A stretch of 64,000 nt of DNA from Candidatus Binatia bacterium. GTDB taxonomy: Bacteria > Desulfobacterota > Binatia > UBA9968 > CAXXLF01. Position 1 is the stretch's first letter. Every line of letters starts with the position of its first letter. The stretch is from contig CAXXLF010000002.1 in the NCBI GenBank assembly GCA_963664015.2, positions 1,632,001-1,696,000 on the forward strand, given 5' to 3'. The notes under the pieces were generated by a model. That model was not told where the DNA came from and made no database searches. It saw only the letters and a list, made by a program, of their open reading frames with translations. The position numbers and the translations under genes are program-made. Shown piece by piece: positions 2,550 through 60,475 of the stretch.

Positions 2550-2770
2550 AGCCGCATAGCGCAGAGAGCAAAGCGTTAAAAATACTAACCGCAGATTTTC
2601 GCCGATTAACACGGATCTTTTCTGGCCGGTCCGGCCAGATCGAAACCCCTCTTATCTGCGAGTATCTGCGTAAAGCTGCGGTTGAAGAATCCGGATTCGA
2701 ATACTGTAAACTGGAGACTGAAAACTAAATACTTAACACTTCTTAGCTGAAGGCTGACAGCTGATGGCTA
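2550..2770. repeat. Composite intergenic repeat, locus A
   Basis: 10-mer-period arm TAACCGCAGATTTTCGCCGATTAACACGGAT (2586-2616), hairpin TCTGGCCGG-T-CCGGCCAGA (2621-2639), inverse arm ATCTGCGAGTATCTGCGTAAAGCTGCGGTT (2654-2683), palindrome GAATCCGGATTC, then heptamer runs; inverted copy at 7911-8088. Confidence 0.9.
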
Positions 2771-2854
2771 TTAGTCAGACATTAAGTGATTGACGGTGCG
2801 CCTTTCGCGGCGTGCCCTACATAACACATGCCCATGTTCGGGGTCAGAATAAAT

Positions 2855-3514
2855 TCACCCGCAAGTTGTTTCACAGCATGACCCAATAGGGATAACGTCG
2901 AGCCACACCTTGGGTTTCAACAGTGTACCCCCCTGCTTCAGCGCAGCCTCCAGTTCGCCCGGCCGGACGAACTTATTCCACCTCAGAGTGCCCTGGGGAA
3001 TCTTTCTCAGGATATTCTGAAACCCGATGCTAACGATAAACAAGGTCATCAGGGTTCGATTGATACCGCTAAATAGAAATATGCCGTTCGGCTTAAGCAT
3101 TCGGGCGATATTACGTGCGGCCACATGCAGTTCGGAGACGTGCTCCAATACGAACGAGGCAACCACCACATCAAAGGATTCATCGGGGAACCCAAGATTT
3201 TCCAGGGAGCCAACTTGGCAATCGATATTAATCCCAACTCGAGTAGCGTGTTACCTGGCGGTTTCAATGGCACCGGGTCGGACATCGATGCCCGTGACCA
3301 GCGCCCCTGCTCTCGAAAAGGTTTCCGAGAGAAGCCCACCACCGCAGCCGGCGTCAAGCAGTCGAGTCCCCTGAACTTTGTCTCCCACAGCGCGCATGAA
3401 AAGTCCGAGGGTTACAGGATGCATGGCGTGAAGGGAGATCAACGCCACCTTTTTGTCCCGCCAGGTTTCTTCTAGACGCCCATAGAGGTCGACGTTGCTG
3501 GCTTTTTCACTCAC
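2855..3514 (-). pseudogene. UbiG-like SAM-dependent O-methyltransferase with in-frame TAA
   Basis: GTG start after AAGGAG; motif I LLDAGCGGGLLSE; TAA at 3251-3253 then same frame continues HATRVG...FDVVVASFVLEHV...LKPNG...INRT...KFVRPGEL. Confidence 0.8.
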
Positions 3515-3857
3515 GGCGGTCTCCTTCCGAAAATGAACTTCCTTCGGCGGGCGGGTCAATAATACACTCGATCTTAAACTGGCTTGTCAAAGGCGCTTGG
3601 GGACCTATTTCCCAGCAGGTACGGTTATAATGGTGAATTACCAGCCACCGTTCCTCTAGGGCATGCATCAATATGCATGACTGTTCAGCGGGTGTCAAAT
3701 TTGCCTTGCCTGCTGAGGCGCGACACCTGCTGGGATTCCATCGGACGGGAGTGAAGACCGGCTGAGGGTCTAGACGGGAACACCGGGTTTCTATTATTTC
3801 ATTGGAGGTTTTATGATAATAATAACGAGGTAAATCCTTACCTGGGACAAAACTAAA

Positions 3858-5408
3858 TTGAGGAGTCATCCCATTACTTTCCTGCTTTCCCTGGCATGCG
3901 CGCTCCTCCTCGCTGTTCCATTCCTTTTTCCGATTCTATTCCCGTTGTCCTGGATTGCCTTGGTTCCCTTGTTCGTGTTGATTCAACCGGTGAATCTCCG
4001 TCAGGCGTTTCTCTTGGCCTGGTTGACTGGCGGGATAACGAACATCCTTGGTTTTTACTGGCTCAATCACACCATCGGGGTGTTCGGCGGATTTCCCCAC
4101 GGACTGAGTGAACTAATTTTTTTGGGGTTTGCCGCCTACGCAGGTCTTCCCATAGCCCTATTTGCGCTGCTCGTTCGGTTTTATGGTCTGGGAGTGTTCG
4201 GTCTGTTTCCTGCTCTGGCCTGGGTTACCATTGAGTTCTGGTTTCCCCAGCTGTTTCCCTGGCACATGGCCAATAGTCAGTCCGCCTTTCTTCCATTGAT
4301 TCAGTGGGCGGATATCGTTGGACCCTACGGAACAAGCTTCCTGCTCGTTTGGGTTAATACGCTTGTATTTAAAGTTGTTCACGCCAAACTTTCGCCTCAG
4401 TCCTCGCTATCCAAATCTTCCCAACGTGATTTAAAGGTGAGCGTACCGGAATGGGTTACCGTCGGAGTCTTGCTCGCGGCCGTTCTGGTCTATGGGTTCG
4501 TCAAGCTGGGAATTGTCGGTCGGCAAATGGCGACCGCCCCTTCGTTGGCGATTGCAACAGTACAGGGAGACATCGACATCCGTGTCAAAGGAAAGATCAC
4601 CTATCTGGAGAGCAATTTAAAAATATATAAGGAACTAACCGAAGAAATCAAAGCAGCGGATCTGATCATCTGGCCCGAATCTGCAGTGGAAGCTTGGCTC
4701 CCGGAAAATCTGAGACGGCTCCCGGAAAATATCCTGCCATCGCTACCCCCCGGTAACCCTTTCTTCCTTTTTGGTGCACGCAGCACGCGTGAAAACCCGG
4801 CCTCCCCAATTCCTACCTTCTTCAACAGCGCCTTTCTAGTAGACAAGGAGGGCAATGTGATCAACCACTACCACAAACAGGTATTGCTCGCTTTCGGCGA
4901 ATACATCCCGCTTCGTGCGGTCCTTTCCAAACTGCCAGGCATGCCTCCCATCGGCAAAGGGTTCACTCCCGGCAAGGGCCCCCGTGTACTTGATCTGTCC
5001 CCGACCATCAAGCTGGCTTCCCTCATCTGCTACGAGGACCTGATGCCCGGGCTGGCGCGCCGGTTTGTGGCCGGCAACCAGGCTAATCTGCTGATCAACC
5101 TCACCAACGATGGGTGGTTCGGCGACAGCGTTGCTCCCTGGCAGCATGCCAACCTGGCCAAGTGGCGGGCCATTGAAACAAGACGCACCCTGGTTCGCGC
5201 AACTAACGCAGGTCTCACTTCTATCATCAGCCCCAAGGGGGAAATCCTGAACACCCTTCCCCCCTTCTCCTCAGGGGTACTCACCGCTACCGTCCCACTC
5301 CTGCAAGGTGAAACGTTCTACGTTCGCTTTGGAGACTGGTTTATCTGGCTCGCAGCAGCAGCTCTCATCTGTTTTTTAATTGTTCGTCCGTGTGCCGCTC
5401 TTTTTTAG
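3858..5408 (+). CDS. lnt: Apolipoprotein N-acyltransferase
   Basis: N-terminal TM helices, WPESA, YHKQVLLAFGEYIP, ICYED, NLTNDGWFG, RAIET...RATNAG. Confidence 0.95.
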   Translation: MRSHPITFLLSLACALLLAVPFLFPILFPLSWIALVPLFVLIQPVNLRQAFLLAWLTGGITNILGFYWLNHTIGVFGGFPHGLSELIFLGFAAYAGLPIALFALLVRFYGLGVFGLFPALAWVTIEFWFPQLFPWHMANSQSAFLPLIQWADIVGPYGTSFLLVWVNTLVFKVVHAKLSPQSSLSKSSQRDLKVSVPEWVTVGVLLAAVLVYGFVKLGIVGRQMATAPSLAIATVQGDIDIRVKGKITYLESNLKIYKELTEEIKAADLIIWPESAVEAWLPENLRRLPENILPSLPPGNPFFLFGARSTRENPASPIPTFFNSAFLVDKEGNVINHYHKQVLLAFGEYIPLRAVLSKLPGMPPIGKGFTPGKGPRVLDLSPTIKLASLICYEDLMPGLARRFVAGNQANLLINLTNDGWFGDSVAPWQHANLAKWRAIETRRTLVRATNAGLTSIISPKGEILNTLPPFSSGVLTATVPLLQGETFYVRFGDWFIWLAAAALICFLIVRPCAALF

Positions 5409-7886: not shown

Positions 7887-7887
7887 G

Positions 7888-8215
7888 CAAAGCGCATGGC
7901 GTTCGGATTTTAGCTTTCAGCTGTCAGCGTTCAGCTAAGAAGTGTTGAGCGTTAAGTAATCAGTTCTCAGCATTCGGATCCGGATTCTTTCACCGCAAAT
8001 TTACGCAGATATTAGCAGATAAGAGAGGCTGCTATCTGACCGGACCGGTCAGAAAACATCCGCGTTAATCGGCGAAAATCTGCGGTTAATTGCTCTAAGG
8101 GTTTTCCTCTTAGCGCTTAGCTTTCTTACCGCCTACTGCTTGCTGCCGACTGTCTTACTGATTTGCGCTTTGCCGCTTCGTTCCCCCCTGTCTTTCTGAA
8201 CTCTGATCTCTGCCG
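7888..8215. repeat. Composite intergenic repeat, locus B
   Basis: 7911-8088 is the reverse complement of 2586-2770; about 8066-8159 is the reverse complement of 45760-45852; heptamer CTACTGC/CTGTCTT runs. Confidence 0.9.
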
Positions 8216-19492: not shown

Positions 19493-19519
19493 TCGGAAAT
19501 GCTGTCAGCCGAGCAAAGA

Positions 19520-19680
19520 AAGACAGTAAGCAGTTGGCAGTGAGCAGCCAGAAACCCGGAGCTGATAAGCTAGGTGCTCATAGCTAAACTTCCTCAGTCC
19601 TGTCTTACTGCTACCAGCTTGCTGTCTTTTTTAATCTGTTGCCCTGCTGCATACTGCCTACTGTAAGCTGTCTTACTGTT
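19520..19680. repeat. Composite intergenic repeat, locus C (inverted heptamer arms)
   Basis: AGACAGT AAGCAGT TGGCAGT GAGCAGC (19521-19548) followed by inverse arms CTGTCTTACTGC... and CTGCATACTGCCTACTGTAAGCTGTCTTACTG. Confidence 0.75.
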
Positions 19681-19698
19681 TTGCGAAAGGAGTCATCC

Positions 19699-42204: not shown

Positions 42205-42660
42205 TGCATAAAAGCGCAAACCGCATGGCGCTTTGCGCAAAGCGTCATGACAATTAACGGCAGATTTTCGCTGATTATCGCAGATACGGATTCGGATATT
42301 TCACCGCAGAGATCGCAGAGAGCCGGAGGTAAGAGATCAGAAGTCAGAAATACTGTAAGCAGTATGCAGCAGAAACATTGCTAAGGACAGAATGCAATTA
42401 TTGTTTTGTTTGTCGGGAGACGACGACAAACAAAAAGGTGAGCACTTTTGCCCAATGGTCGTCTCCCGATTGGGCAAATATCCTTATCTTTACGAGCTTG
42501 GCGTCTTGGCGCGAAAATAGCTTTTCTTTGGTTATCTGTGGATATCTGCGTGTATCTGCGGTTAAAGAATCCGGATCCGAATACTGAGAACTAACAATCC
42601 GGACGCTATGCGGCCTGCGGTCCAGGCTGCCTACTGCAAACTGCCCACTGTCTTTCTCTT
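42205..42660. repeat. Composite intergenic repeat, locus D
   Basis: Opening arm 42255-42285 and closing arm 42534-42563 enclose a CGCAGAGA arm, heptamers, the twin hairpins 42404-42435 and 42447-42478, and a CTTGGCG arm; right flank AAGAATCCGGATCCGAATACTGAGAACT shared with A/B. Confidence 0.9.
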
Positions 42661-45754: not shown

Positions 45755-46135
45755 GGGAGAGTAAGACAGTAGGCCGTTTGCAGTAGGCAGTAAGAAAGCT
45801 AAGTGCTAGGAGGAGAGCCTTTAGAGCAATTAACCGCAGATTTTCGCTGATTATCGCAGATGCAGATTCGGATATCTCACCGCAGAGACGTTTTTCGACT
45901 GTGCACGGGACTGAGGGAAGAGTTTTTGCCCAATCGGGAGACGACGATTGGGCAAAAGGCCTCGCTTTCAAAAGCAGTATCTTTTTGTTTGTCGTCGTCT
46001 CCCGACAAACAAATAATATTTGTGTTCTGTTCTTAGCACTGTTCCTGCTGCCCATTGCATACTGCTTACTGTCTTTTGAATTGCTGCCTCCTGCCTACTG
46101 CCCACTATCTTAATTTCCGCGCAATGCGCTTTGCA
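45755..46135. repeat. Composite intergenic repeat, locus E
   Basis: Heptamer arm plus opening arm (45760-45861) matching B inverted and D direct; twin hairpins 45924-45957 and 45984-46013 inverted relative to D; inverse heptamer arms to about 46110. Confidence 0.9.
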
Positions 46136-46150
46136 CATGGTCGGTGTCAG

Positions 46151-46179: not shown

Positions 46180-46185
46180 TGAGGG

Positions 46186-47283: not shown

Positions 47284-47325
47284 CTGCTTCATTGACTCAC
47301 TCAAGCCCCCGGCAAAATAGATCCC

Positions 47326-49050: not shown

Positions 49051-49054
49051 CGCG

Positions 49055-49819
49055 ATGGCCTCGAACCCAGATGCCGTCGTGTTGCCTGTTTCAATGAAGG
49101 AAAAACTGATCCTGGCCTTGGACGTCGACGATCTGGAACCGGTCAAACGGCTCGTCGGCTTACTATCCGGCCAGGTAGAGTTGTTCAAGATCGGCAAGCA
49201 GCTATTCGTCCATGCCGGCCCGTCTGTAGTCAAGCTCATCCGTGACCAGGGCGGCGAAGTCTTCCTGGATCTCAAATTTCACGATATTCCCAACACCGTG
49301 TCCAAGGCCGCCGTCGAGGCCACCCGCCTCGGCGTGAGGATGTTTAATCTCCACGCCTCGGGCGGTCTGGAGATGATGCGCCAGACCGTTGAGGCCGTGC
49401 ATGATATCGGCAGCAAGGCAAAGCTCCGTCGTCCCATCCTCTTAGGAGTAACCGTTCTAACCAGTCTCGACCAGGAGGACCTCACCCGGATAGGCGTAAC
49501 GGCAAAGGTTACCGATCAAGTCGTGCGACTGGCGACCCTATGCCAGGAAGCGGGGATGGACGGCGTAGTGGCATCGCCCCGAGAGGTCAGTTTGATCCGC
49601 TCCGCCTGCGGCCCTCGCTTCACGATCGTTTGCCCCGGCATTCGCCCTCAAGGCAAGGCGCAGGCCGATCAAAAAAGGGTGATGACGCCAGGAGAGGCCA
49701 TTCGCACCGGTGCAGATTATATCGTCGTCGGCCGTCCCATCACGGAGGCGAAAGATCCGCTGGCGGCATCCAGAGAGATCGTCGCGGAAATGGTACAGGC
49801 CGCCAATACGGACCATTGA
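49055..49819 (+). CDS. pyrF: Orotidine-5'-phosphate decarboxylase
   Basis: LALD, FLDLKFHDIPNT, VTVLTS, PGIRP, VVGRPI; start may be ATG 49094. Confidence 0.96.
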   Translation: MASNPDAVVLPVSMKEKLILALDVDDLEPVKRLVGLLSGQVELFKIGKQLFVHAGPSVVKLIRDQGGEVFLDLKFHDIPNTVSKAAVEATRLGVRMFNLHASGGLEMMRQTVEAVHDIGSKAKLRRPILLGVTVLTSLDQEDLTRIGVTAKVTDQVVRLATLCQEAGMDGVVASPREVSLIRSACGPRFTIVCPGIRPQGKAQADQKRVMTPGEAIRTGADYIVVGRPITEAKDPLAASREIVAEMVQAANTDH

Positions 49820-49841
49820 GGCACGGACCAGTGAAATAATC

Positions 49842-50732
49842 ATGAAGCCGACGGGATTCTATACATTACTCGGCTTGGTATTTTCCCTGTTCATTATCCC
49901 CACTATCGTTCTCGCCCAAGGGGTAAAAGAAGATAGGGTGAAGCGAGGCCAGTATATTTTTGCCCTGGCCGGCGGCTGCGCCTGCCACACGATGCCTGAA
50001 AAGACCCCGCATGCGGGGGGACGAAAGTTTCCCGTTCCCCTGGGGACAGCCTACTCCACCAACATAACTCAGGACAAAGAGACCGGGCTTGGCAACTGGT
50101 CGGATGAGGAAATTCTTAACGCTATGGTCAAGGGGATCCGCCCCAACGGGCAGAGGGTGCTGCCCTTGATGCCCTACGAGGCCTACTCGGGTATGGCGGA
50201 AGAGGACCTGAGGGCCCTGATCGCCTATATGAAGACGCTAAAGCCGGTGCGCAAAAAATCACCGCCAGCGAAGTTTCAGGTCCCATTCATACGCTCTTTG
50301 ATGACCCCCATGTGGCTCAAACTCTTCGCCCACTTCTCGACACCCCCTAAGCAAGCGCCCAAAAGCGGAATCAAAAGGGGCAAGTACCTGGTCGATCACG
50401 TGGCCCTTTGCGGCGACTGCCATACACCTCGAAAATCCTTGGGGGTACCGAACCGTTCCCTCTACCTCGCAGGCGCCGAGTCGGGTCCTCTGGGAGAAGA
50501 CGTACCCAACATTACACCCGACGAAAATACCGGCATTAAAGACTGGAGCCGTGACCAGATCGCCGACCTTCTCATCAAGGGAACCAAACCGGACGGGGAT
50601 GAAGTTCAGGGCCTCATGGACGAGGTCATCTGGGGAACGCCTCTCGGCTACAAGGACATGAACCGCCAGGATGCTTTAGCCATTGCCGATTACCTGAAGT
50701 CCATCCCACCCATCGTCAACGAGATCAATTAG
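49842..50732 (+). CDS. Diheme c-type cytochrome (gluconate/alcohol dehydrogenase cytochrome subunit-like)
   Basis: Signal peptide, RGQY..CACHT, NITQDKETGLG, RGKYL..CGDCHT, PNITPD. Confidence 0.88.
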   Translation: MKPTGFYTLLGLVFSLFIIPTIVLAQGVKEDRVKRGQYIFALAGGCACHTMPEKTPHAGGRKFPVPLGTAYSTNITQDKETGLGNWSDEEILNAMVKGIRPNGQRVLPLMPYEAYSGMAEEDLRALIAYMKTLKPVRKKSPPAKFQVPFIRSLMTPMWLKLFAHFSTPPKQAPKSGIKRGKYLVDHVALCGDCHTPRKSLGVPNRSLYLAGAESGPLGEDVPNITPDENTGIKDWSRDQIADLLIKGTKPDGDEVQGLMDEVIWGTPLGYKDMNRQDALAIADYLKSIPPIVNEIN

Positions 50733-50769
50733 AACCTAAGATCAAAGCAGACAAATACCTCCTTAGGAA

Positions 50770-51165
50770 CCTAACCGCAGATTTTCGCTGATTATCGCAG
50801 ACGGGAACACAGCAAAGCGCTAAGACAGGGCTATTACTGCGGGACAACTGACAGAAGGAAGACAGTTTGCAGTAGGCAGTAAGAAAGCTATGCGCTAAGA
50901 GTAAGGCAGTTTCAAAACTCAAAACCCTAAATCCGAAATAAATTTAAATAACAGAATACCTAATCTCAAAACTACAGAATTAAATAGGGTAGGGCTTTGG
51001 TAATTTTAATTTTGATATTGCTTAGAGTTTCGGATTTGGGATTTGGTGCTTTGGATTTAGAATTTATTATTTAGTCTGCGGATATCTGCATAAATCTGAG
51101 GTTAAATGTCTTCACTCTTTGCCCCTTGCTGCCTACTGTCTTACTCTTCCCCTCAGCGCTTTGCA
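50770..51165. repeat. Composite intergenic repeat, locus F
   Basis: Opening arm 50772-50801 and closing arm 51074-51103 enclose a CAGTAGG arm and an AT-rich inverted heptamer pair (AAATCCG-type about 50915-50965, CGGATTT-type about 51025-51065). Confidence 0.88.
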
Positions 51166-51169
51166 GCGG

Positions 51170-52990
51170 TTAGCCGAGCTGCTGCGACCCGCGGTGAAAC
51201 TGCATCAAATATAGCTCTCGATACAACCCCTCCTGCCCCACCAACTCATTATGGGTTCCCTGCTGCACAACCTGCCCGCGTTCGACGACAAACAGCCTGT
51301 CCGCATTCCGTATGGTCGAGAGACGATGCGCAATGACAAAGGAGGTTCGCCCGCTCAAGAGGCGTTTTAACACGGCCTGAATGAGTGCCTCCGTTCGGGT
51401 ATCGATGCTAGCCGTGGCCTCATCCAGGACGAGGATACGCGGGTTTGCCAAGACGACCCGTGCCAGGGCCATGAGTTGCCGCTGACCCTGGGAGAAATTC
51501 TGCCCACGTTCGAACACCCGGGTAGCGTATCGCTCCGGCAAAGGGAAGATGAAATCATGTGCGCTTGCCTGCCTAGCAGCCTCCATCACCTCTTCATCGG
51601 TCGCATCCAAGCGGCCAAAACGAATGTTGTCTGCGATAGTGCCGGTAAATAAAAATGGGTCCTGTGGGACGACGCCAATCTGGCACCGCAGGGATGATTG
51701 GGTCACCTCCCGGATGTCGGTGCCATCGATCAGTATCCGTCCCTCACTCACATCGTAAAACCGGCTGATCAAACTGGAGATGGAAGTCTTACCGGCACCC
51801 GTGGGCCCTACCAATGCGATCGTTTGCCCCGGTTCCACTGTAAAGGAAATATCTTGAAGAACCGGCACCCCATTGCGATAACTGAAATTGACCTGATCGA
51901 ACTCAACCTTGCCTTTGATTTGGGACATGGGCCTGGCATCGGGACGGTCATCCACCTCCACCGGCGTGTCCAGCAACTCAAAGATCTTCTCACCTGCTGC
52001 CATGGACTGCTGGAAGAGAGTGTAGATCGTGCTGAGTTCCCGTATGGGTTGAAAAAACCGTGTCACGTAGGTTAGAAACGCCACCACAACGCCTACGGTG
52101 ATCTCACCAGCAAGCACGGAAGCGGCACCAAACCAAAGCACCGTTGCCGTTGCCAGCATGGCGATTACCTCCACCACCGGCGGGAAGGCGCTGGATAAGG
52201 TCACAGCCCACAGATTTGCTTGAAGGTTCGCAAGGTTAACCTGGTCGAACCGATTCTGACTCACCTGTTCACGGGCAAAGGCCTGGACCACCCGGACACC
52301 GGAAATGCTCTCCTGAAGACTCGCCGCCACCTGAGCAATGGTCTCCCTGGTACGCAGATAAGCCCCTCGCACACGATGGGCAAAGACCAGGGTCACAATC
52401 ACCATGACCGGTGAGAGTGCAAAGGTGTAAAGCGCAAGCTTGGGGCTCATGGTGAGCATGATCACGACGATGCCTACAATAACCAAAAGGTCAGCCACCA
52501 GGTCGACGAACCCATGGGTCATCAACTCCTGCAATACCGTCACGTCGTTGATAATTCGCGACATGGTCACACCCGATTTGTGCCGGTCGTGATAGCCCAA
52601 GGGGAGCCGGTTGATCTTCTGGAATAGCTGGTCGCGTATCCGCTTCAACACCCGTTGAGTGACCGAGGCCATGGTGTAGGATTCACCTGCCTGCGAGCCC
52701 CAAGCGATGAGCAAGGTTAGCAAGAAACCGATGCAGACCATGGAAAGGCCGGCCATGTCTTGCTGTGCCACCAAATAGTCATCAATGGCGACTTTCAGCA
52801 GGTAAGGACCAATGAGGTGCATGCCGGCGGTAATGCTGACCAGGATCATGGCCCCAATCACGTTAATCCGGTATGGTTTTAGATATTCGAGCAGTCGCTT
52901 GACCACCTGGGGGTTGAAGGCTCTTCCTCTGGTCCGTCTTCCGGTACCGTTGGAATGCCACATCCACCCTCCGCCTCCTTGCGCGACCAT
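51170..52990 (-). CDS. ABC exporter, fused permease/ATPase (heterodimer subunit 2)
   Basis: GPTGAGKT, FSQGQRQ, LDEATA, AHRLST. Confidence 0.94.
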   Translation of the reverse strand: MVAQGGGGWMWHSNGTGRRTRGRAFNPQVVKRLLEYLKPYRINVIGAMILVSITAGMHLIGPYLLKVAIDDYLVAQQDMAGLSMVCIGFLLTLLIAWGSQAGESYTMASVTQRVLKRIRDQLFQKINRLPLGYHDRHKSGVTMSRIINDVTVLQELMTHGFVDLVADLLVIVGIVVIMLTMSPKLALYTFALSPVMVIVTLVFAHRVRGAYLRTRETIAQVAASLQESISGVRVVQAFAREQVSQNRFDQVNLANLQANLWAVTLSSAFPPVVEVIAMLATATVLWFGAASVLAGEITVGVVVAFLTYVTRFFQPIRELSTIYTLFQQSMAAGEKIFELLDTPVEVDDRPDARPMSQIKGKVEFDQVNFSYRNGVPVLQDISFTVEPGQTIALVGPTGAGKTSISSLISRFYDVSEGRILIDGTDIREVTQSSLRCQIGVVPQDPFLFTGTIADNIRFGRLDATDEEVMEAARQASAHDFIFPLPERYATRVFERGQNFSQGQRQLMALARVVLANPRILVLDEATASIDTRTEALIQAVLKRLLSGRTSFVIAHRLSTIRNADRLFVVERGQVVQQGTHNELVGQEGLYRELYLMQFHRGSQQLG

Positions 52991-54811
52991 TTAACTCTGC
53001 CCCCCTATCCGCGGCTGCTCATAGGCCGGTAGGCCCAAGCCCGACCTGTCCAGGAGCTGAATCTGGACAATTTCGTTGTAGATGCTGTTATGCTCTAGCA
53101 ACTCGGCGTGGGTCCCCTGGCCCATTATCTCCCCACGATCCAGGACGATGATCTTATGAGCGTGCTGAACCGTGCTAACACGCTGAGCGATTATAAAGGT
53201 CGTCCGATCTTTCATAAGGATGTCCATGGCGTCGCGGATCAGGGCTTCCGTTTCGGTATCCACCGCAGAGGTAAAGTCATCAAGAATGAGGACTCGAGGA
53301 TCCAGCAGAAGTGCTCGCGCAATGGAAATGCGCTGTTTTTGACCGCCGGACAGCGTGACTCCTCGCTCACCCACAGTGGTGTCGTATCCTTCGGGGAACC
53401 CGCAGATGAACTCATGGGCCCGAGCCGCCTTTGCCATGCTGATGATCTCGTCTTGAGTGGCCTCGGGAACTCCAAAGGCGATGTTCTCGCGGATCGTGCC
53501 CGTGAAAAGGGTGGTGTCTTGCATTACAATGCCTATCTGGCGCCTGAGCGAGAGGAGTTGAAGGTCTCGGACATCGTGACCGTCGACGAGTACACGACCC
53601 TCTGTCACGTCGTAGAATCGGGGGATGAGGTTGACAATGGTGGATTTACCGGACCCCGTGGTCCCCAACAGGGCCACGATCTCACCGGGACTCACTTTGA
53701 AGCTCACGTCTCGAAGCACCGGCACACCCGGGTAATACGTGCAGGATACCTTTTGGAACTCCACCATCTCCTTGATAGCAGGCAAAGGAGAGGCATTTGG
53801 TTTGTCTTCCACGTCCACCGGTGCATCCAAGACCTCAAAGACCCTCTCTCCTGCTGCAATTGCCCGTGAAGTCTGTCCGATAAGAAATCCAAGGCGGCGC
53901 ACAGGCCGGACCATCAGCAGAAGGTAGGTATTAAACGCCACGAGCTGTCCCACGGAGAGTTCCCCACCGATAACCAGAGTTCCTCCAAACCAGAGCACGA
54001 CCAACGTACTCAGGTTGGCAAACACGTCCATCAAGGGATTGGAATAGGACTGAACCTTTGCCGCCGCCAGGTACTGCCCGAGTAGCAGCTCGTTTTGATG
54101 TTCAAACTTTTCAATCTGGTCCTCTTCACGGGCAAAGGCTTTGACGACCCTGGCACCGGCCAGGTTCTCCTGGACAATGGTCGCCAGAACGGCCAGTTCC
54201 TCCTGTGCCTTGCGAAAGAGGGGGCGAACCCTGTGACCATACTGGGAGGCAGCGTGGGACAAAAAGGGGAGCGTTACGAGAGATGCCGCGGCCAATTTCC
54301 AGTTCATGCTAAAGAGCACAATACCTATGCCCAACCCTATGAACACAAAATGGGCCATTTGAATGAGTGCCCGACTGGTGAAGTGGCGAAGTTGGTCCAC
54401 ATCGCTAGTGGCTCGCGACATGAGCTGGCCGGTTTGTGCCCGGTCATGCCAGCTAAAGGAGAGTCGTTGGAGGTGGCGAGAGATCTGGCTGCGAAGATCA
54501 TAAGCGATCCCCTGGGCACTGTAGGCCCCCAAATAGCCCTGCCCGAAATGGAAGAAACCCTTGACCACGGTGAGACCGACGATGAGGGAAACATGCCACG
54601 CGATGAGGCTCATGGAGTCCACCCCAGCAGCGCAATGGGCGGGGACACCACGGGCTCCCACCCCCACCCTGAGCCCACAATCAATGATCTGGCGAATCAT
54701 GTAGGGTATGGAGAGTTCCACCGACGCAACCACAAGCAGACAGATATAAGCTGCCAGTGTCGCAAGCCAGTACTTGCGAAAGTAACCCAGAATTCGAAGA
54801 ATCGTACCCAT
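52991..54811 (-). CDS. ABC exporter, fused permease/ATPase (heterodimer subunit 1, degenerate site)
   Basis: GTTGSGKS, LSGGQKQR, LDDFTS and AQRVST (degenerate Walker B/H-loop). Confidence 0.94.
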   Translation of the reverse strand: MGTILRILGYFRKYWLATLAAYICLLVVASVELSIPYMIRQIIDCGLRVGVGARGVPAHCAAGVDSMSLIAWHVSLIVGLTVVKGFFHFGQGYLGAYSAQGIAYDLRSQISRHLQRLSFSWHDRAQTGQLMSRATSDVDQLRHFTSRALIQMAHFVFIGLGIGIVLFSMNWKLAAASLVTLPFLSHAASQYGHRVRPLFRKAQEELAVLATIVQENLAGARVVKAFAREEDQIEKFEHQNELLLGQYLAAAKVQSYSNPLMDVFANLSTLVVLWFGGTLVIGGELSVGQLVAFNTYLLLMVRPVRRLGFLIGQTSRAIAAGERVFEVLDAPVDVEDKPNASPLPAIKEMVEFQKVSCTYYPGVPVLRDVSFKVSPGEIVALLGTTGSGKSTIVNLIPRFYDVTEGRVLVDGHDVRDLQLLSLRRQIGIVMQDTTLFTGTIRENIAFGVPEATQDEIISMAKAARAHEFICGFPEGYDTTVGERGVTLSGGQKQRISIARALLLDPRVLILDDFTSAVDTETEALIRDAMDILMKDRTTFIIAQRVSTVQHAHKIIVLDRGEIMGQGTHAELLEHNSIYNEIVQIQLLDRSGLGLPAYEQPRIGGQS

Positions 54812-54817
54812 AGCTGT

Positions 54818-55291
54818 CTAGCGACGTTGGCGGGATCGCCCCCCAACTGCCGAGCGTTCCTCACCTTCGTCGGCCCGTGGGTCCACTGGGAGGGAATCGC
54901 CGGTCAGACCGGCGTAGTCGTTGAGTAAACGCTGGGTGCGAATCATCTGTCTTTTCAGATGGTAGGCCCGACGTTGAAGGAGCTCGCGGCCAGGGTCGGT
55001 GATCTTGTAGTAACGTCGCGCCGGCCCCGACTTCTGGGTTGACCACTTGGAGCGAATAGCACCCGATTCCTCCATCGATCGGAGGACCTTGTAGACCACC
55101 CCCGGCTCCGTGGCTCGCTTAAAACCATAGTCGGCAAGCGTCTTCATGAGGTCGTACCCATAGGAGGGTTCGCGCAGCAATTCCAAGAGCAGGAAGGCCT
55201 CCAGGTTACGCCCAATGGTTCCCGACGGATCACGGGAGCCTGTTCGTGGGGCGGTGGAAAGTCGATGTTGCAGACTAGATGTTTTTTTCAT
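54818..55291 (-). CDS. PadR family transcriptional regulator
   Basis: SYGYDL, PGVVYKVLRSMEESG, GPARRYYKITDPG. Confidence 0.9.
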   Translation of the reverse strand: MKKTSSLQHRLSTAPRTGSRDPSGTIGRNLEAFLLLELLREPSYGYDLMKTLADYGFKRATEPGVVYKVLRSMEESGAIRSKWSTQKSGPARRYYKITDPGRELLQRRAYHLKRQMIRTQRLLNDYAGLTGDSLPVDPRADEGEERSAVGGRSRQRR

Positions 55292-55292
55292 T

Positions 55293-55306
55293 TAGATTGA
55301 AATCTA
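55293..55306. promoter_or_regulatory. Palindromic operator upstream of padR
   Basis: TAGATT-GA-AATCTA immediately before the start codon, overlapping a candidate -10 (TTGCAT-N17-TAGATT on the minus strand). Confidence 0.55.
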
Positions 55307-55428
55307 CTCTATGGATTTTCCCGATGCAACTTTCTCACCGTGGTGGAACCGACCCAAGCTACCGGTTTAGTTGACCCCAGCGTTTTTTTGTGTGTATACT
55401 GCCTTCTTTAAATTTACGGATCTCCGCG

Positions 55429-55815
55429 ATGTTATTCAAATTTGCCAACGTATTAGTCTTTTTGGTGATTGCCGCCGGCTTCGTCGGCATCAATCTGCTC
55501 ATCGGGCGTATTTTACGGCCATCCAATCCCCAACCCCGCAAGCTATCAACCTATGAGTGCGGCGAACCCGCGGCGGGAAGCGCGTGGATGAATTTCAACG
55601 CTCGTTTTTACATCATCGCCCTGATTTTCATTATCTTTGAAGTTGAGATTGCCTTTATCTTTCCCGTTGCTACTGTCTTCAGACAATGGATTGAAAACGG
55701 TCACGGAATTTACGCCTTAGTCCATGTTTTCCTATTCGTATTCATCCTTCTCCTGGGACTCGTTTATGCGTGGAGAAAAGGAGATCTGGAATGGGTGAGA
55801 AAGCTGAGTACTTGA
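55429..55815 (+). CDS. nuoA: NADH-quinone oxidoreductase subunit A
   Basis: [31 protein letters not shown]. Confidence 0.93.
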
Positions 55816-55831
55816 GGGCCAGGGCGATTCC

Positions 55832-56338
55832 ATGGATGCCAGTGATATCTACCAACGCTTAACACAGCAATTTGCAGGAGATGTTTCCGATTTCAACGGC
55901 GAGGCCCTGGACCCGTATTTTAGCGTAAAGGCCTCGTCCATTGTGACGGTTTGCACCTATTTACGGGACGAATCCGACTTGAATTTCGAGGTCCTGTCCG
56001 ACCTCACGGCCTTGGACCTGCCCAAGGAAAACAAATTCCAGGTTGTCTATCACCTCTATTCCTATCCGCACCATCATCAGAGCGTTCTCAAGGTCGACCT
56101 TCCCAGAGAAGAGGCCCGTATCGTAACCGTTGAAGGGGTGTGGAAGGCCGCCAATTGGCTGGAACGTGAGGTTTTTGATCTGTTTGGCATTTTTTTCGAG
56201 GGCCACAGTGATCTCAGGAGGATCATGCTCCCCGAGGATTGGGTCGGACATCCGCTGCGCAAAGACTACGTGGAGCAGGAAGAGTACGATGGGATCAGCA
56301 CCCAACGGGAGCCTTTGGTCCCAGGGGTTTTGCGCTAG
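55832..56338 (+). CDS. nuoC: NADH-quinone oxidoreductase subunit C
   Basis: ANWLEREVFDLFGI.F.GH.DLRRI, GHPLRKDY. Confidence 0.94.
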   Translation: MDASDIYQRLTQQFAGDVSDFNGEALDPYFSVKASSIVTVCTYLRDESDLNFEVLSDLTALDLPKENKFQVVYHLYSYPHHHQSVLKVDLPREEARIVTVEGVWKAANWLEREVFDLFGIFFEGHSDLRRIMLPEDWVGHPLRKDYVEQEEYDGISTQREPLVPGVLR

Positions 56339-56355
56339 AGAGGAAACGTCACGTA

Positions 56356-57498
56356 ATGGACGATACCAAGCAAATTGAGCCGGAATCCTTTCAAACCGAG
56401 GATATGATCATCAATGTGGGCCCCCAGCACCCCAGCACTCATGGCGTTCTCCGCTTTGTGGTCAGGACCGACGGTGAGGTTATTCGCGAGGCGACACCCG
56501 ATGTGGGCTACTTGCACCGATCCATAGAAAAGATCGGTGAGAAGGTAACCTGGCATGGGTACGTCCCTTATACGGACCGGGCCGATTACCTTGCGGCCAT
56601 GTTCGCCAATCAAGGCTTTTGCATGGCGGCGGAGCGGCTGGGAAACGTCCAGGTCGTCAGGCGCGGCGAGTTCTGTCGGGTTATCGCATGTGAACTCAAT
56701 CGTATCGCCAGCCATCTTATCGCCGTAGGCACCTTTGGTCAGGATATTGGCGCCATTACGCCCTTCATCCACGCCCTCCGCGAGCGAGAAAGCATCAACA
56801 ATTTGATGGAGGAGATTTGCGGCGCCAGACTCACCTATAATTACCTGAGAATCGGTGGGGTGGGATACGACATCAAGCCCGAGACCTGCGATCGCATCAC
56901 CGCATTTATCGACCACTTCGTACCCATCGTCGACGAGTACAACCGCCTGCTCTCAAACAATAAGATCTTCGTCGAGCGGCTGGTCAACGTGGCAGTGATT
57001 ACCCGTGAGGACGCCATGCAGTACAACATCGTCGGGCCTAACCTGCGCGCCTGCGGTATCCAATGGGATATCCGACGGGACATTCCTTATTCCGTATACC
57101 CTGAGCTTGAATTTGACGTTCCCGTGGGTACCGGTGAGAAGGGCACATTAGGGGACTGTTTCGACCGCTATATGGTGCGCATCTTGGAGATGATCGAAAG
57201 CTGCAAGATCCTAAAGCAGTGTCTGAAGATGCTACCCAAGGGTCCAGTCATCTCAAAAGTTCCAATCCGGTTCAGGCCGCCTGCAGGGGAGGCCTATAGC
57301 CGGGTCGAGGCGCCCCGGGGTGATATGGGTTTCTATGTGACCAGCGACGGAACCGAGTATCCTTATCGAGTACGCATCCGGACCGGCTCCTTTACCTCTA
57401 TGGGACTCATCGGCAAACTCAGTCGCGGGATCATGCTGGCTGACCTGATCGCCCTGATCGCCAGCCTGGACGTGGATGCGCCGGAGATCGATCGTTAG
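56356..57498 (+). CDS. nuoD: NADH-quinone oxidoreductase subunit D
   Basis: GPQHPSTHGVLR, GYLHR, DRADY, EAPRG, EIDR; no NiFe CxxC motifs. Confidence 0.95.
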   Translation: MDDTKQIEPESFQTEDMIINVGPQHPSTHGVLRFVVRTDGEVIREATPDVGYLHRSIEKIGEKVTWHGYVPYTDRADYLAAMFANQGFCMAAERLGNVQVVRRGEFCRVIACELNRIASHLIAVGTFGQDIGAITPFIHALRERESINNLMEEICGARLTYNYLRIGGVGYDIKPETCDRITAFIDHFVPIVDEYNRLLSNNKIFVERLVNVAVITREDAMQYNIVGPNLRACGIQWDIRRDIPYSVYPELEFDVPVGTGEKGTLGDCFDRYMVRILEMIESCKILKQCLKMLPKGPVISKVPIRFRPPAGEAYSRVEAPRGDMGFYVTSDGTEYPYRVRIRTGSFTSMGLIGKLSRGIMLADLIALIASLDVDAPEIDR

Positions 57499-57510
57499 AG
57501 ACACCAGACC

Positions 57511-58698
57511 ATGCAATCCCTTGCGGACCAATTATTCGAAGCCGGATACCTCCCGGGAATATCGCGCGAATTCGTTTACGCCGCGGTCATACTTCTTGTC
57601 GCTATCTCCGTGCTCTCCGTTTTTGTCGCCCCCCTCGCTGGAGTGACCAGCTGGTTGGAACGAAGGGTTTGGGCCAGGATCCAATCCCGCATCGGTCCCA
57701 ACCGGGTGGGCCCCCAGGGTATACTCCAATGGCTTGCCGACGGGATCAAAAATCTGCTGAAAGAGGACCTGATTCCCGCGGCGGCGGATCGAAAACTCTT
57801 TGCCCTCGCTCCCTACGTGGTCTTTATGGGATTCTTTGCCACCTTCGTGGTTATCCCCTTCGGTAGCCAACTGATCGTTGCGGACCTGAACATTGGTATC
57901 CTTTACATATTGGCCGTCACGTCGCTCGTCGTTGTCGGGATACTTATGGCCGGCTGGTCATCTAACAACAAGTGGTCGCTCCTTGGAGGCATGCGCTCCG
58001 CTGCGCAGATTGTCAGCTACGAGATTCCCGCCGGTCTTTCGGTTTTGACCATAATCTTTATTACCGGGACTCTCAGCATGCAGGGCATCATTGGCCGACA
58101 GGGCTGGGCCCCCTGGGATTGGTTTCTCTTCTACAGCCCCTTTACCTTCATAGCCTTTTTCCTCTTCTTTACCGCAGCCCTGGCCGAGGGCAACCGTACG
58201 CCCTTTGATATCCCGGAGGCCGAGTCCGAGTTGGTTGCGGGGTACGTGACCGAATACAGCGGGATGCGATTTCTCTTCTTCTTCTTTGCCGAATGGGGGA
58301 ATCTCTACGTGATCGGCGCCGTGGCCACCACTCTCTTCCTTGGCGGGTGGCAAATTCCACCCTTATTCGAGAACGTTTTTATAAATGGGCTGCTGGAGTT
58401 CGTTGTCTTTTTCCTCAAGGCTTATCTGTGGGTTTTCGTCGCCATGTGGATTCGAGGAACTCTGCCACGGGTGCGGGTTGATCAGCTCATGTCTATGTGC
58501 TGGAAATACATGGTGCCGTTGTCTTTTATTTGCCTATTTGGAACCGCGACCTTCTTAGTGATTTGGCCCGCGGGAAACCGCTGGATCAGCATGCTCATGT
58601 TCGTTCTGGGACTCCTAATCCTGGCGCGCTTTTGCTGGCGCGTAAGATTCCAGATTCGCCACGCCCGGCCGGATCTCTATTTTAATCCGTTCATTTAA
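57511..58698 (+). CDS. nuoH: NADH-quinone oxidoreductase subunit H
   Basis: ERRVWARIQSRIGPNRVG, RTPFDIPEAESEL, TLPRVRVDQL. Confidence 0.95.
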   Translation: MQSLADQLFEAGYLPGISREFVYAAVILLVAISVLSVFVAPLAGVTSWLERRVWARIQSRIGPNRVGPQGILQWLADGIKNLLKEDLIPAAADRKLFALAPYVVFMGFFATFVVIPFGSQLIVADLNIGILYILAVTSLVVVGILMAGWSSNNKWSLLGGMRSAAQIVSYEIPAGLSVLTIIFITGTLSMQGIIGRQGWAPWDWFLFYSPFTFIAFFLFFTAALAEGNRTPFDIPEAESELVAGYVTEYSGMRFLFFFFAEWGNLYVIGAVATTLFLGGWQIPPLFENVFINGLLEFVVFFLKAYLWVFVAMWIRGTLPRVRVDQLMSMCWKYMVPLSFICLFGTATFLVIWPAGNRWISMLMFVLGLLILARFCWRVRFQIRHARPDLYFNPFI

Positions 58699-58722
58699 GA
58701 TATAGGGTCGAGGTCGTAGGTT

Positions 58723-59286
58723 ATGAGTACACTGACTGCATACGTCAACAATATCGCCGAAACAATCACATCGGTTTTTGAAGGGATGTCCATCACCTTT
58801 TCGCACCTTGTCCGCCGTCCCTCGACGATTCAGTATCCGGACCGTATTCCCCAGCAAATCCAGGACACCCTGCCTTTAAGATACCGGGGCATCCTGGAGG
58901 TCGACATGGATATTTGTACGGGATGTCTAGCCTGCGAACGGATATGCCCGATCACCTGCATCGCTATCGGCATTGATATGGACAAGGAGACCCGGCAACG
59001 GAGCTTCAGCCAATTTGATATCGACATGTGTAAGTGCATGTACTGCGGACTGTGCTCCGAGTCCTGTCCGACGGGAGCCATACGCCACAGCCAGGAATTC
59101 GAAGGGGCAAGTCATAACCCGGCGGGGTTGGTGCGTCGCTTCGTGACCGAGCCGGTCTCTCTGTACAAGCCCAAGAAGGGCGGAGAGACCGAACCCAAGA
59201 TGATCGCAAAGGTAGAGACTGGGAAAATGTATATGGACGAGCTAGCCACTCCGGATGCGGGGGGGAAAGGCTCCGAGGAGAGGTAG
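58723..59286 (+). CDS. nuoI: NADH-quinone oxidoreductase subunit I
   Basis: TIQYP, CTGCLACERICP and CMYCGLCSESCP. Confidence 0.93.
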   Translation: MSTLTAYVNNIAETITSVFEGMSITFSHLVRRPSTIQYPDRIPQQIQDTLPLRYRGILEVDMDICTGCLACERICPITCIAIGIDMDKETRQRSFSQFDIDMCKCMYCGLCSESCPTGAIRHSQEFEGASHNPAGLVRRFVTEPVSLYKPKKGGETEPKMIAKVETGKMYMDELATPDAGGKGSEER

Positions 59287-59315
59287 GTGACAACCGGCAC
59301 TGCGGGTTCTATACC

Positions 59316-59378
59316 GGTCCGTCGTACCGTAGTTCCTTAACGCATCCTCCCATCGTCGACCCTACGGACCTACGGACT
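59316..59378. repeat. Short inverted 8-mer-period repeat between nuoI and nuoJ (locus H)
   Basis: GTCCGTCGTACCGTAG versus CTACGGACCTACGGAC (13/16 complementary). Confidence 0.5.
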
Positions 59379-59417
59379 TGCAGTCCTTGGGGTCCCCCGA
59401 AAAGTGAGAGAAGCTCT

Positions 59418-59924
59418 ATGGATATTTCAATCAGCACGGCCATTTTTTATTTGGTCGCCTTCGTTACGATAGTTTCTGCGGCGGGTGTGGCCTTTTCATC
59501 CAACATTGTGCACTCGGCCTTCTCCCTGGTCGGAACTTTCGGCGGTGTGGCCACCCTATACGTCTTTCTGGGAGCCGATTTCGTCGCCGGCGTCCAAATC
59601 TTGATTTATGTCGGCGGGATTTTGGTTCTAATCCTCTTCGCAGTCATGTTAACTCACAGGATCAGTGAGATCGAGATCAGCAACCGTGCCGTGGGAAGAA
59701 TCCCCGCTTTCATCCTATGCGGGGGCCTGCTCGCCTTACTCGTTACGACTATCCGGGAAACTCCATGGCTCACTGCCGCGAAACCATCCCATGAGCCGAC
59801 CACCTCCCGGATCGGAGACCTCTTCCTGCAACAGTATCTCCTTCCCTTTGAGCTGGCATCGATTGTACTGCTGGTTGCTTTGATTGGAGCCGTTGTCATC
59901 GCCAGGAAAGAGATTAAAGAGTAG
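59418..59924 (+). CDS. nuoJ: NADH-quinone oxidoreductase subunit J
   Basis: QILIYVGGILVLILFAVML, YLLPFELAS. Confidence 0.94.
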   Translation: MDISISTAIFYLVAFVTIVSAAGVAFSSNIVHSAFSLVGTFGGVATLYVFLGADFVAGVQILIYVGGILVLILFAVMLTHRISEIEISNRAVGRIPAFILCGGLLALLVTTIRETPWLTAAKPSHEPTTSRIGDLFLQQYLLPFELASIVLLVALIGAVVIARKEIKE

Positions 59925-59934
59925 GGGAAAATCC

Positions 59935-60243
59935 ATGGCTATTGGACTGACCCATTATCTCGTGATTGGCGCCATCCTCTTTAGCCTGGGCCTCTTCACG
60001 GTCCTGACCCGGCGCAATGCCATCAGTGTGCTCATGGGGGTCGAGTTGATTTTGAATTCAGCCAATGTCAATTACGTCGCGTTTTCCCACTTCAGCAGCG
60101 GTCGGCTCGACGGCCAGATCTATGCACTTTTTGTGATCATGTTGGCGGCGGCAGAAGCTGCCGTGGGGTTGGCCATTGTCTTAGCCATCTACCAGCTTTT
60201 CCATTCCATTGATGTGAGGGCGGCCCAAACACTCAAAGATTAG
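59935..60243 (+). CDS. nuoK: NADH-quinone oxidoreductase subunit K
   Basis: RRN...GVELILN, AAAEAAVGLA. Confidence 0.94.
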   Translation: MAIGLTHYLVIGAILFSLGLFTVLTRRNAISVLMGVELILNSANVNYVAFSHFSSGRLDGQIYALFVIMLAAAEAAVGLAIVLAIYQLFHSIDVRAAQTLKD

Positions 60244-60277
60244 GAGAACATGGTTAGGGACTAGGCCAACAAGAACG

Positions 60278-60475
60278 ATTCGCGCAAAGACTCCGTCAGA
60301 GGACGGATCACCCCCCGCCTTAGGCGGGTCCGCCTCAGCAGGACCGGGCTGAGCAAAGAACACCAAGGTTTAGTAATATTACAAAATTCGAAACTTAGAA
60401 TCCGAAACAAACATGACAAATTCCAAAATTATAAGATCCTCAATCCAAAATCTAAAATCAAACACCTAAATTCTA
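60278..60475. repeat. Composite intergenic repeat, locus G (inside nuo operon)
   Basis: CGCGCAAAGAC...GCAAAGAACACCAAG arm interrupted by mini-hairpins TCCGTC-AGAG-GACGGA (60292-60307) and CCCGCC-TTA-GGCGGG (60314-60328); then AAATTCG/AATCCGA/AATCCAA/AATCTAA heptamers. Confidence 0.75.

Follow-up and report, generated by a model that had tools for sequence, protein, structure and literature searches.

What are the short periodic repeats that occupy several spacers between ordinary genes in a Candidatus Binatia genome, and to what kind of system do they belong? The stretch that raises this question, hereafter the window, consists of 64,000 nucleotides (nt) of GenBank assembly GCA_963664015.2 (contig CAXXLF010000002.1), here C2:1632001-1696000 of the genome we call G000, and coordinates of elements are given as window positions. 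An initial annotation of the window had named eight spacers, A to H, built from degenerate tandem units, and had proposed that they are empty or non-autonomous units of a mobile or recombination system. We consider it probable that the elements in these spacers belong to a family of hairpin cassettes with periodic arms but have no gene, perhaps being non-autonomous copies or relics; we refer to the family as periodic-arm cassettes, a working name and not that of a published family. The elements share one anatomy, have a gene-bearing counterpart in a sister genus, and lack its gene in G000; their units slip, their occupancy turns over at the level of genera, and their modules are conserved.

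In its full form, as we reconstruct it, such a cassette is a small gene inside layers of inverted, degenerate tandem arms, with the purine- or G-rich version facing inward on both strands. Two vocabularies can be told apart. One has 8-10-nt units (CGCAGAT, CGCAGAG, CGCAAAG, CACGAAG) together with two hairpins, hpA and hpB, and surrounds GxxExxY genes (TIGR04256); the other has 7-nt units (CAGTAGG, AGCTGAC and many others) and surrounds genes for four-helix-bundle proteins (TIGR02436). The window uses both, and in G000 the GxxExxY gene is gone and the shells remain, nested and intergenic.

A gene-bearing counterpart in a sister genus

Genome G004, from a sister genus, has four TIGR04256 matches, and its locus L362 has two cassettes. 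With > and < for the two orientations of an arm, the first consists of CAGTAGG>, CGCAGAT> and CGCAGAGA units, hpA (607-639), a GxxExxY region (about 709-1066), hpB (1116-1147) and a closing CCTCTGCG arm, written <CGCAGAGA in cassette order; its GxxExxY copy may be damaged, since the family match covers positions 28-114 only. In the second, CGCAGAT> GGATTCGG> hpA> CGCAGAT> precedes an intact open reading frame (ORF) of 132 amino acids (aa; 2251-2649), and CGCAGAT< stands behind it. This ORF matches PF13366 (E = 1.9e-40) and its translation keeps the GxxExxY and D...ExK motifs; a sequence comparison of the G004 GxxExxY protein with solved structures gave no match. The window elements to be set beside L362 are the following:

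42205..42660, no strand assigned: element D, with a GCGCAAAG arm, CGCAGAT>, GGATTCGG>, CGCAGAGA units, hpA, hpB, CTTGGCG units, CGCAGAT<, midA> and a CCTACTG closing arm
42405..42437, plus strand: hpA in D, a 13-bp stem with the 8-nt loop GGAGACGA, 97% identical to L362 607-639
42444..42482, plus strand: hpB in D, a 13-bp stem with the loop TCGTCTCC, complementary to the hpA loop
45760..46112, no strand assigned: element E, CAGTAGG> AGCTAAG> CGCAGAT> GGATTCGG> hpB< hpA< CAGTAGG< CAGTAGG<, without a closing CGCAGAT arm

Element D is collinear with the first L362 cassette to the left and right of the gene, the aligned parts being 79%, 97% and 91% identical, and E is collinear with it in reverse orientation. 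Between the two hairpins there are 10 nt in D as against 476 nt in L362, where the GxxExxY region occupies the interval, an arrangement found at one locus of one genome. Given this collinearity and this difference in spacing, the window elements are best understood as the same cassette minus its gene. The whole of G000, which is 97% complete by marker genes, yielded no match to TIGR04256 and none to PF13366, and the window elements are therefore gene-less derivatives rather than full members. The proposal of empty or non-autonomous units is thus directly supported, and genes enclosed by matching arms, which the initial annotation had suggested listing, are found in the GxxExxY genes of L362. 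In the same genome, at least seven CGCAGAT-composite matches and two GxxExxY genes fall within 15 kb (C6, about 1,070,000-1,085,000), a local nest of cassettes.

Periodic inverted flanks of two gene families

The initial annotation had mentioned, from other genomes, periodic flanks around TIGR02436 and TIGR04256 genes. We scored a locus as positive when the inverted score between the upstream and downstream 290 nt exceeded the maximum of 20 shuffles, and obtained the following counts:

TIGR02436, order plus own genome: inverted 27/31, direct 12/31, array on at least one side 29/31
TIGR02436, phylum: inverted 26/27, direct 6/27, array on at least one side 26/27 (3 of 30 loci dropped for short flanks)
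TIGR04256, order: inverted 13/14, array on at least one side 13/14
TIGR04256, phylum: inverted 24/24, direct 14/24, array on at least one side 23/24

Overall, inverted periodic flanks are present at 37/38 TIGR04256 loci and 53/58 TIGR02436 loci, which bears out that statement for both families. Units to the left and right of the gene are reverse complements of each other, and the unit sequence changes from locus to locus. The period is specific to the gene family: 79 of 127 arrays near TIGR02436 genes have a period of 7, 14, 21 or 28, and 73 of 81 near TIGR04256 genes have a period of 8-10. Array density per kb is 4.5-4.7 next to TIGR02436, 3.2 next to TIGR04256 and 0.6-0.95 elsewhere in the loci. 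The units near TIGR04256 are words of the window (CGCAGAG, CGCAAAG, CGCAGAT, CGCCAAG, CACGAAG). On the heptamer side, the CAGTAGG/CCTACTG arms of elements C, E and F fit the inverted heptamer arm type of TIGR02436 genes, and the window's CAGTAGG profile matches the arm of one such gene (1/29 loci searched, E = 0.0014).

The arms of TIGR02436 genes are polarised, with the G-rich strand inward in 76/97 arrays and 24/31 per locus (loci L194-L222 and L296-L325). G-minus-C polarity at TIGR04256 loci was not significant (21/33), nor was it in palindromic spacers of G000 in general, where the left arm is more G-rich in 58/98. We also considered that heptamer arms form a three-frame stop barrier and rejected this, as stops on the inward strand prevailed in 44 versus 30 arrays (p = 0.13); all three frames are closed in 28 versus 17 of 88 heptamer arrays, the inward-reading strand being slightly ahead.

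Within the phylum sample, TIGR02436 occurs in 82/151 genomes and TIGR04256 in 44/151. The remark that the window holds no gene of either family proved correct: G000 has three TIGR02436 genes, all on contig C1 and all bracketed by heptamer arrays, and its lack of TIGR04256 extends to the whole genome. Two of the three (C1:357,741-358,004 and C1:444,440-444,760) carry an in-frame stop (TGA and TAG, respectively), as do several copies in relatives, and these stop-bearing genes may be decaying.

Composition of the window elements

The remaining elements, taken from repeat matches and the module map, are the following:

2586..2770, no strand assigned: element A, a CGCAGAT> arm, a CCGGCC core hairpin, CGCAGAT<, then midA> and an AGCTGAC> heptamer arm (nhmmer module map, C2 1634586-1634770)
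7911..8159, no strand assigned: element B, AGCTGAC< midA< CGCAGAT> CCGGCC< CGCAGAT< CAGTAGG<
19517..19685, no strand assigned: element C, opening arm CAGTAAG/CAGTTGG and closing arm CCTACTG
50772..51165, no strand assigned: element F, CGCAGAT>, CAGTAGG>, an AAATCCG/TTTGGGA arm pair, a closing ATCTGMG arm and a CCTACTG arm
59316..59378, plus strand: H, the nuoI-nuoJ spacer, CCTACGGA x2.1, a conserved orthologous spacer
60282..60365, no strand assigned: part of G, a CGCAAAGA arm of 9-mers that a 61-nt palindrome (60292-60352) interrupts
60366..60475, plus strand: remainder of G, an AAATCC-rich nuoL leader conserved in G002 and G004 (orthologous spacer comparison)

Element B mirrors A and has a CCTACTG closing arm in addition, and the two share 165 nt at 80% complementarity. 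B and E have 103 nt in common (86%), and D and E 62 nt (94%) besides a 33-nt hairpin for which their complementarity is 100%. Tandem Repeats Finder (TRF) and a reading of the spacers confirmed the tandem units at the places where they had been described, with 10-mers at 42260, 42525, 45835 and 50776, 7-mers at 7908, 45767, 46084 and 51028, and an 8-mer at 59361. Two diagnostic 12-mers exceed the shuffled expectation 8- to 20-fold: AACCGCAGATTT has 7 matches at up to 1 mismatch against 0.32 expected, and GCAGTAGGCAGT has 23 at up to 2 mismatches against 2.96 expected; none of 100 shuffles reached 7 or 23, respectively. Long-hairpin folding gave z-scores of -5.2 for D, -6.2 for E, -4.2 for F and -2.5 for A.

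The view that one vocabulary runs through all eight spacers holds for A to F, which share modules, and has to be narrowed for the others. For G, the CGCAAAGA arm and the palindromic insert are repeat-like, and the orthologously conserved AAATCC-rich 3′ part probably lies outside the repeat family. H had no match beyond itself in the whole genome by BLAST or profiles, and since its spacer is conserved among orthologs (131, 122 and 122 nt in G000, G004 and G002) we do not count it as a member.

Distribution and layering across the genome

Module profiles, seeded from the window and searched with nhmmer through the 3.5-Mb genome, gave 153 matches at 73 loci, 152 of them non-coding as judged by a crude gene model (ORFs of at least 150 aa), which agrees, but for one match, with the statement that the arms are never coding. 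The matches (non-coding in brackets) are 51 (51) for CGCAGAT, 21 (20) for CAGTAGG, 17 (17) for AGCTGAC, 16 (16) for hpA, 14 (14) for hpB, 14 (14) for midA and 13 (13) for GGATTCGG. BLAST with the eight spacers found 58 loci in the genome, C finding 3 and H only itself. Iterated BLAST did not converge (58, 85, 115 and 136 loci), so the total copy number is not derivable in this way and the vocabulary must be wider than the window shows. Intergenic heptamer arrays comprise 56 different units, and 61% of period-7 and 66% of period-14 arrays are intergenic in a genome with a non-coding share of 17%.

A single layer order runs through the 73 loci. CAGTAGG or AGCTGAC-midA lies outermost, CGCAGAT follows, GGATTCGG and CGCAGAGA come next, and innermost stands a core formed by the hpA-hpB pair or by a small CCGGCC hairpin; the pairs within pairs of the initial annotation are thus confirmed as a layering like that of an onion. 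At all nine loci with two CGCAGAT arms the arms converge; 33/51 CGCAGAT arms have no partner detected by profile, a count that is overstated because the profile missed F's closing arm. An oriented alignment of the 51 CGCAGAT arms has a sharp start at TTAACCGCAGAT, and the contexts of these arms comprise few recurring outer and inner neighbours and some unique flanks. Blind pairing at the level of arrays was weakly positive, with 14 of 85 neighbouring arrays inverted-similar against about 5.6% of random pairs, and an alignment version of this test was nearly flat.

Every spacer type is occupied (tandem 38, convergent 21, divergent 12), matching the placement in convergent, divergent and intra-operon spacers described for the window, and convergent spacers are mildly over-represented, accounting for 30% of the spacers that are occupied but for 19% of the base pairs in spacers. 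More than half of the module loci (39/73) lie in C2:1.25-1.75 Mb, the region that contains the window. This region surrounds a sign change of GC skew and of gene-strand bias and is likely to mark an origin or terminus of replication, or else a rearrangement; dnaA maps to contig C1 (C1:111,447). The repeat-rich stretch C1:431-451 kb, tried as a mobile island, was found to hold housekeeping genes instead. Two further genome-scale measures were of little use: a 12-mer census was too noisy to apply to the repeat family, and the density of period-7 arrays was 30-40 per Mb both in the family lacking the two genes and in two other samples, which is uninformative at the TRF score of 30 used, where background noise is present.

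Conservation and turnover in relatives

Modules of D occur in 4/4 other genomes of the same family, in 9/18 of a second family and in 0/18 of a third family of the same order. The 64-nt left half (CGCAGAT-GGATTCGG-CGCAGAGA) has at least 31 matches in G002 and at least 44 in G004, with identity up to 90%, and one 33-nt stretch is 100% identical across genera, where the neighbouring proteins are about 60-90% identical. The hpA-hpB unit was absent from 150 other sampled genomes of the phylum.

We aligned 26 hpA-hpB copies from three genomes and found a mean column identity of 78%. In both hairpins a 13-bp stem carries an 8-nt loop; the loops of hpA and hpB are mutually complementary, and the linker is variable. 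Nine stem pairs are changed on both sides compared with 1.6 in shuffles, and 0/500 shuffles reach nine; as about 59 of 883 cells in the stem alignment are unpaired, the evidence that the stems are maintained is genuine but of modest weight. In genome G001 (loci L240-L242), hpB stands about 85 nt ahead of hpA, whereas hpA comes first in G000, G002 and G004, and the hairpins can therefore serve as outer arms around other sequence. An RNA-level strand asymmetry was considered, as the CGCAGAGA/CTTGGCG arms pair by G:U on one strand only, yet whole-locus folds were strand-neutral (7/19) and we rejected it.

To compare orthologous spacers, as the initial annotation had suggested, we set the syntenic block of G004 and that of G002 against G000. 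Spacer lengths in G000, G004 and G002 were as follows:

H: 131, 122 and 122 nt
C: 146 and 160 nt, none given for G002
F: 437, 225 and 247 nt
G (nuoK-nuoL): 301, 667 and 146 nt

Occupancy differs between genera, and the spacers are thus not invariant. The F spacer has a module set of its own in each of the three genomes; the C ortholog in G004 is also occupied, with AGCTGAC, GCAAAG and CAGTGGG units; and the G004 nuoK-nuoL spacer holds three CTTCGTG/CACGAAG hairpins, CGCAGAT and hpA. In G000 the 61-nt palindromic unit of G, a family with 5 loci in the genome, lies exactly between two CGCAAAGA arm units and is missing from the G002 ortholog.

At the level of strains, we compared assembled contigs, as opposed to raw reads, of three DNA runs from other studies over 41500-61000. 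The clearest indels in the arms are exact whole units, as slippage would give:

42543..42552, no strand assigned: one 10-nt unit of D's closing arm missing (run X7 contig)
46084..46090, no strand assigned: one 7-nt unit of E's closing arm missing (run X5 contig)
51128, no strand assigned: one extra CTGCCTA unit in F's closing arm (X5 and X7 contigs)

Further small indels were seen at 42612-42615, 45840-45975 and 51177, and short-read contigs end inside D and E. For one RNA run (X13), which placed 30 contigs, no listed piece falls on an element. The closest matches in IspG scans of metagenomes and of genome collections had 86% and 84% protein identity, respectively, and the scans thus gave no strain-level loci; the closest named IspG loci, at 79-84% protein identity, come from metagenome-assembled genomes labelled Candidatus Binatia or Deltaproteobacteria.

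How the cassettes may spread, and alternative explanations

If the window elements are shells of such cassettes, the cassettes could spread as DNA hairpin units, through cut-and-repair or copy-in at hairpin or cruciform structures, with the encoded nuclease-family (PD-(D/E)XK) protein as the likely driver. Existing arms or hairpin loops would be preferred landing sites, and landing there would produce nesting. Shells might persist where long hairpins are tolerated or mildly useful in spacers, and the four-helix-bundle protein would have some role in heptamer-type cassettes; Avd, a relative of TIGR02436, is a nucleic-acid-handling accessory of retroelements (PMC10053308). Mobility is favoured by the dispersed copies, by the differing occupancy of orthologous spacers and by the one clean 61-nt insertion.

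Several observations weigh against this interpretation, however. There are no recent copies, the best identity within the genome being about 94% over 62 nt and that of most pairs 75-90%, and strains diverged by up to about 3% keep the elements at the same positions (one X7 contig spans 42194-44281). Searches of the genome for RVT_1, DDE_Tnp_1 (IS4-type), TnpB and PDDEXK_3 returned no match, and Y1_Tnp gave only a match below threshold. For PF13366 the function is listed as 'Unknown' in a table of PMC3424549, and it has no demonstrated activity. The arms at the three TIGR02436 genes of G000 share little sequence with the window modules, and the flank counts over relatives come from kin and are not independent. 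The regular layer order can be explained as well by deletion and recombination of one composite ancestor as by nested insertion, and the hpA-hpB core replaces the simpler CCGGCC core rather than interrupting it. At 60292-60352, the sole insertion with a clear empty ortholog (in G002), we looked for a target duplication and saw none. Finally, high conservation across genera could mean a host function. A mobile or recombination system is accordingly still a matter of inference, with dispersal, occupancy and the insertion on one side and the lack of recent copies, target duplication and transposase on the other, and that it targets its own kind is suggested only by the nesting and by the one insertion between two arm units.

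The host-function alternative, which we regard as unlikely although by no means negligible, is that these are structured spacers under selection, acting as RNase III-type processing sites, transcript stabilisers, terminators, insulators or protein-binding sites, which small genes entered secondarily in the manner of intervening sequences at rRNA helix tips. A function of the hairpins would explain the strong conservation of module sequence across genera; some changes in the stems are compensatory, the elements are stable among strains, convergent spacers are mildly enriched, and in several genera modules, if not the same ones, occupy the orthologous spacers C, F and nuoK-nuoL. Hairpins of cyanobacterial 7-bp repeats have been proposed to affect transcript stability (PMC2670836). 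A general regulatory role would not lead one to expect 39/73 loci within one 0.5-Mb region, however, and occupation extends to every spacer type, divergent ones included. The hpA-oriented folds have no strand preference (7/19), orientation is independent of the flanking genes, no T run of the kind found at terminators follows the hairpin stems, and the window has no match in Rfam (a permissive scan of 42150-46200 gave a chance-level match within ribBA alone).

The remaining possibilities appear much weaker. The mosaic architecture of bacterial interspersed mosaic elements (BIMEs) resembles these elements, and palindromes might be moved as single-stranded hairpins by a single Y1-like (HUH) protein, in a system akin to repetitive extragenic palindromic (REP) sequences, BIMEs or REPINs (hairpin-forming REP doublets). 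The insertion without target duplication is what HUH-type movement would give, and the genome's only Y1-like ORF has two of the five palindrome loci around it, oppositely oriented, one on each side at distances of about 0.8 and 3.3 kb. This ORF (245 aa, C1:435,530-436,811, L094 507-1788, minus strand), after which a NusG paralogue follows, falls below the Pfam cut-off, however (Y1_Tnp 21-22.4 bits against 23, with Bac_DnaA_C also sub-threshold); its HUH position reads H-L-Q, housekeeping genes separate it from the flanking repeats, CGCAGAT-type modules are not concentrated around it, and the gene in the cognate cassettes is a PD-(D/E)XK family member and not a Y1 protein; we hold this explanation to be very unlikely. 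Growth of the arms in place, by replication slippage or template switching at hairpins with similarity between loci arising by convergence, would account for the whole-unit indels between strains and for the 56 heptamer units. Composites of 60-165 nt recur in the same module order among loci and genera at 80-100% identity, however, which local slippage cannot produce; it is contradicted for the shared modules and as a whole scarcely credible, although slippage may have diversified the arms. Least plausible of all is an origin as integron-type attC recombination sites or cassette remnants. The elements are imperfect palindromes about 100 nt long, and some CGCAGAT arms start with ACTTAAC and end with GTTAAGT, ends that we take to fit the attC core-site pattern, but the bases before TTAAC vary between copies and mostly depart from that pattern, and the elements stand singly between housekeeping genes rather than in cassette arrays.

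Returning to periodic-arm cassettes as the preferred reading, one may postulate, as a speculative extension that could well prove wrong, that the GxxExxY and Avd-like proteins are working parts of undescribed, widespread mobile cassettes that target hairpins, of which 23S intervening sequences would be the one case noticed so far. A cassette would either bring its own periodic inverted arms, purines inward, or form them by unit slippage; landing in hairpin loops or arms would explain both nesting and the rRNA helix tips, and gene-less shells would outlive the gene in a lineage, as in G000.

Relation to known repeat systems

Miniature inverted-repeat transposable elements (MITEs) are likewise short, non-coding, multi-copy and intergenic with inverted ends, and here too a longer relative with the same ends has a gene (G004 L362). 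Where a MITE has one terminal inverted repeat, the ends here are layered, degenerate 7-10-nt tandem arrays; a target duplication was not observed, unit boundaries of the CGCAGAT type are fuzzy, and the enclosed gene encodes a 132-aa PD-(D/E)XK-family protein and no known transposase. REP/BIME sequences and REPINs with their REP-associated tyrosine transposases (RAYTs) are also intergenic palindromic mosaics, conserved within lineages, with hairpin-forming doublets as the likely unit (Bertels and Rainey 2011, PMC3116915). In the present case no RAYT is found above the family threshold, the units are periodic arrays, and the cognate genes are those for GxxExxY and four-helix-bundle proteins.

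The short tandemly repeated repetitive (STRR) heptamers of cyanobacteria are tandem 7-bp spacer units, capable of forming hairpins and of unknown function (PMC2670836), and the small dispersed repeats (SDRs) of cyanobacteria (PMC5861425) are a further close kind. Both differ from our elements in lineage and unit sequences, and our elements add 8-10-mers, explicit nesting and a demonstrated link to two gene families. Small dispersed repeats are reported to insert into other repeats. The 23S rRNA intervening sequences (PMC10053308) contain a TIGR02436/PF05635-family gene within inverted repeats that form a long stem, whereas the window elements are gene-less and lie between protein-coding genes. 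The 23S rRNA of G000 (3013 nt against a 2925-position model) has no large insertion. To our knowledge, published accounts of 23S intervening sequences do not mention arms built of periodic units.

None of these systems (MITEs, REP/BIME/REPIN, STRR, 23S intervening sequences) combines layered periodic arms, gene-specific periods and such cargo genes. A literature search found no description of the cassette architecture, with supplements and curated family texts outside its view, where a prior note is possible; by topic, TIGR02436 by name gave no match, work on GxxExxY, PDDEXK_3, PF13366 and TIGR04256 did not describe the flanks, and work on the intervening-sequence protein, PF05635, S23, STRR and SDR did not describe the architecture. 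The results tie two widespread proteins of unknown function to one repeat cassette of an apparently undescribed kind. Both are very common small proteins for which we know of no role outside diversity-generating retroelements and rRNA intervening sequences; nearly all examined gene copies lie inside inverted periodic arms with a family-specific period, which turns a 'hypothetical protein' into a testable model of a selfish or structural cassette. For annotation, the shells matter in that they yield spurious ORFs, break short-read assemblies and vary spacer length between relatives. An example of the first is a 105-aa ORF, almost certainly spurious, at 45738-46055 on the minus strand, wholly within element E.

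Genomic setting and further observations

The G000 assembly comprises 3.51 Mb in two contigs with 53.5% G+C. Housekeeping genes flank all named spacers, judging by the neighbouring ORFs. A lies beside a coenzyme A pyrophosphatase (Nudix-family) gene and a UbiG-like fragment, B beside a 2-hydroxyacid dehydrogenase gene, C between fabI and a rhodanese gene, and D between genes for an RND (resistance-nodulation-division) permease and an SsuA-like protein; E occupies the divergent spacer between ribBA and ispG, and F the convergent spacer between genes for a 340-aa protein and an MsbA-like ABC (ATP-binding cassette) transporter. G is the nuoK-nuoL spacer.

Two unrelated features of the assembly were encountered. 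The stretches C1:953-11,595 and C2:153,252-163,893 are both dense in multi-copy 12-mers, and we take this shared density, read from unaligned sequence, as a sign that they are mutual copies; an rRNA operon was ruled out for the duplicated stretch at the start of C1, as no Rfam family occurs there. The C2 stretch adjoins a segment, C2:1-148,145, that contains all 158 dinucleotide microsatellite arrays of the genome. These are (AC)n and (AG)n arrays of up to 259 nt and 9 kb in total, unusual for a bacterium, and the segment may represent a chimeric join, foreign DNA or an assembly artefact.

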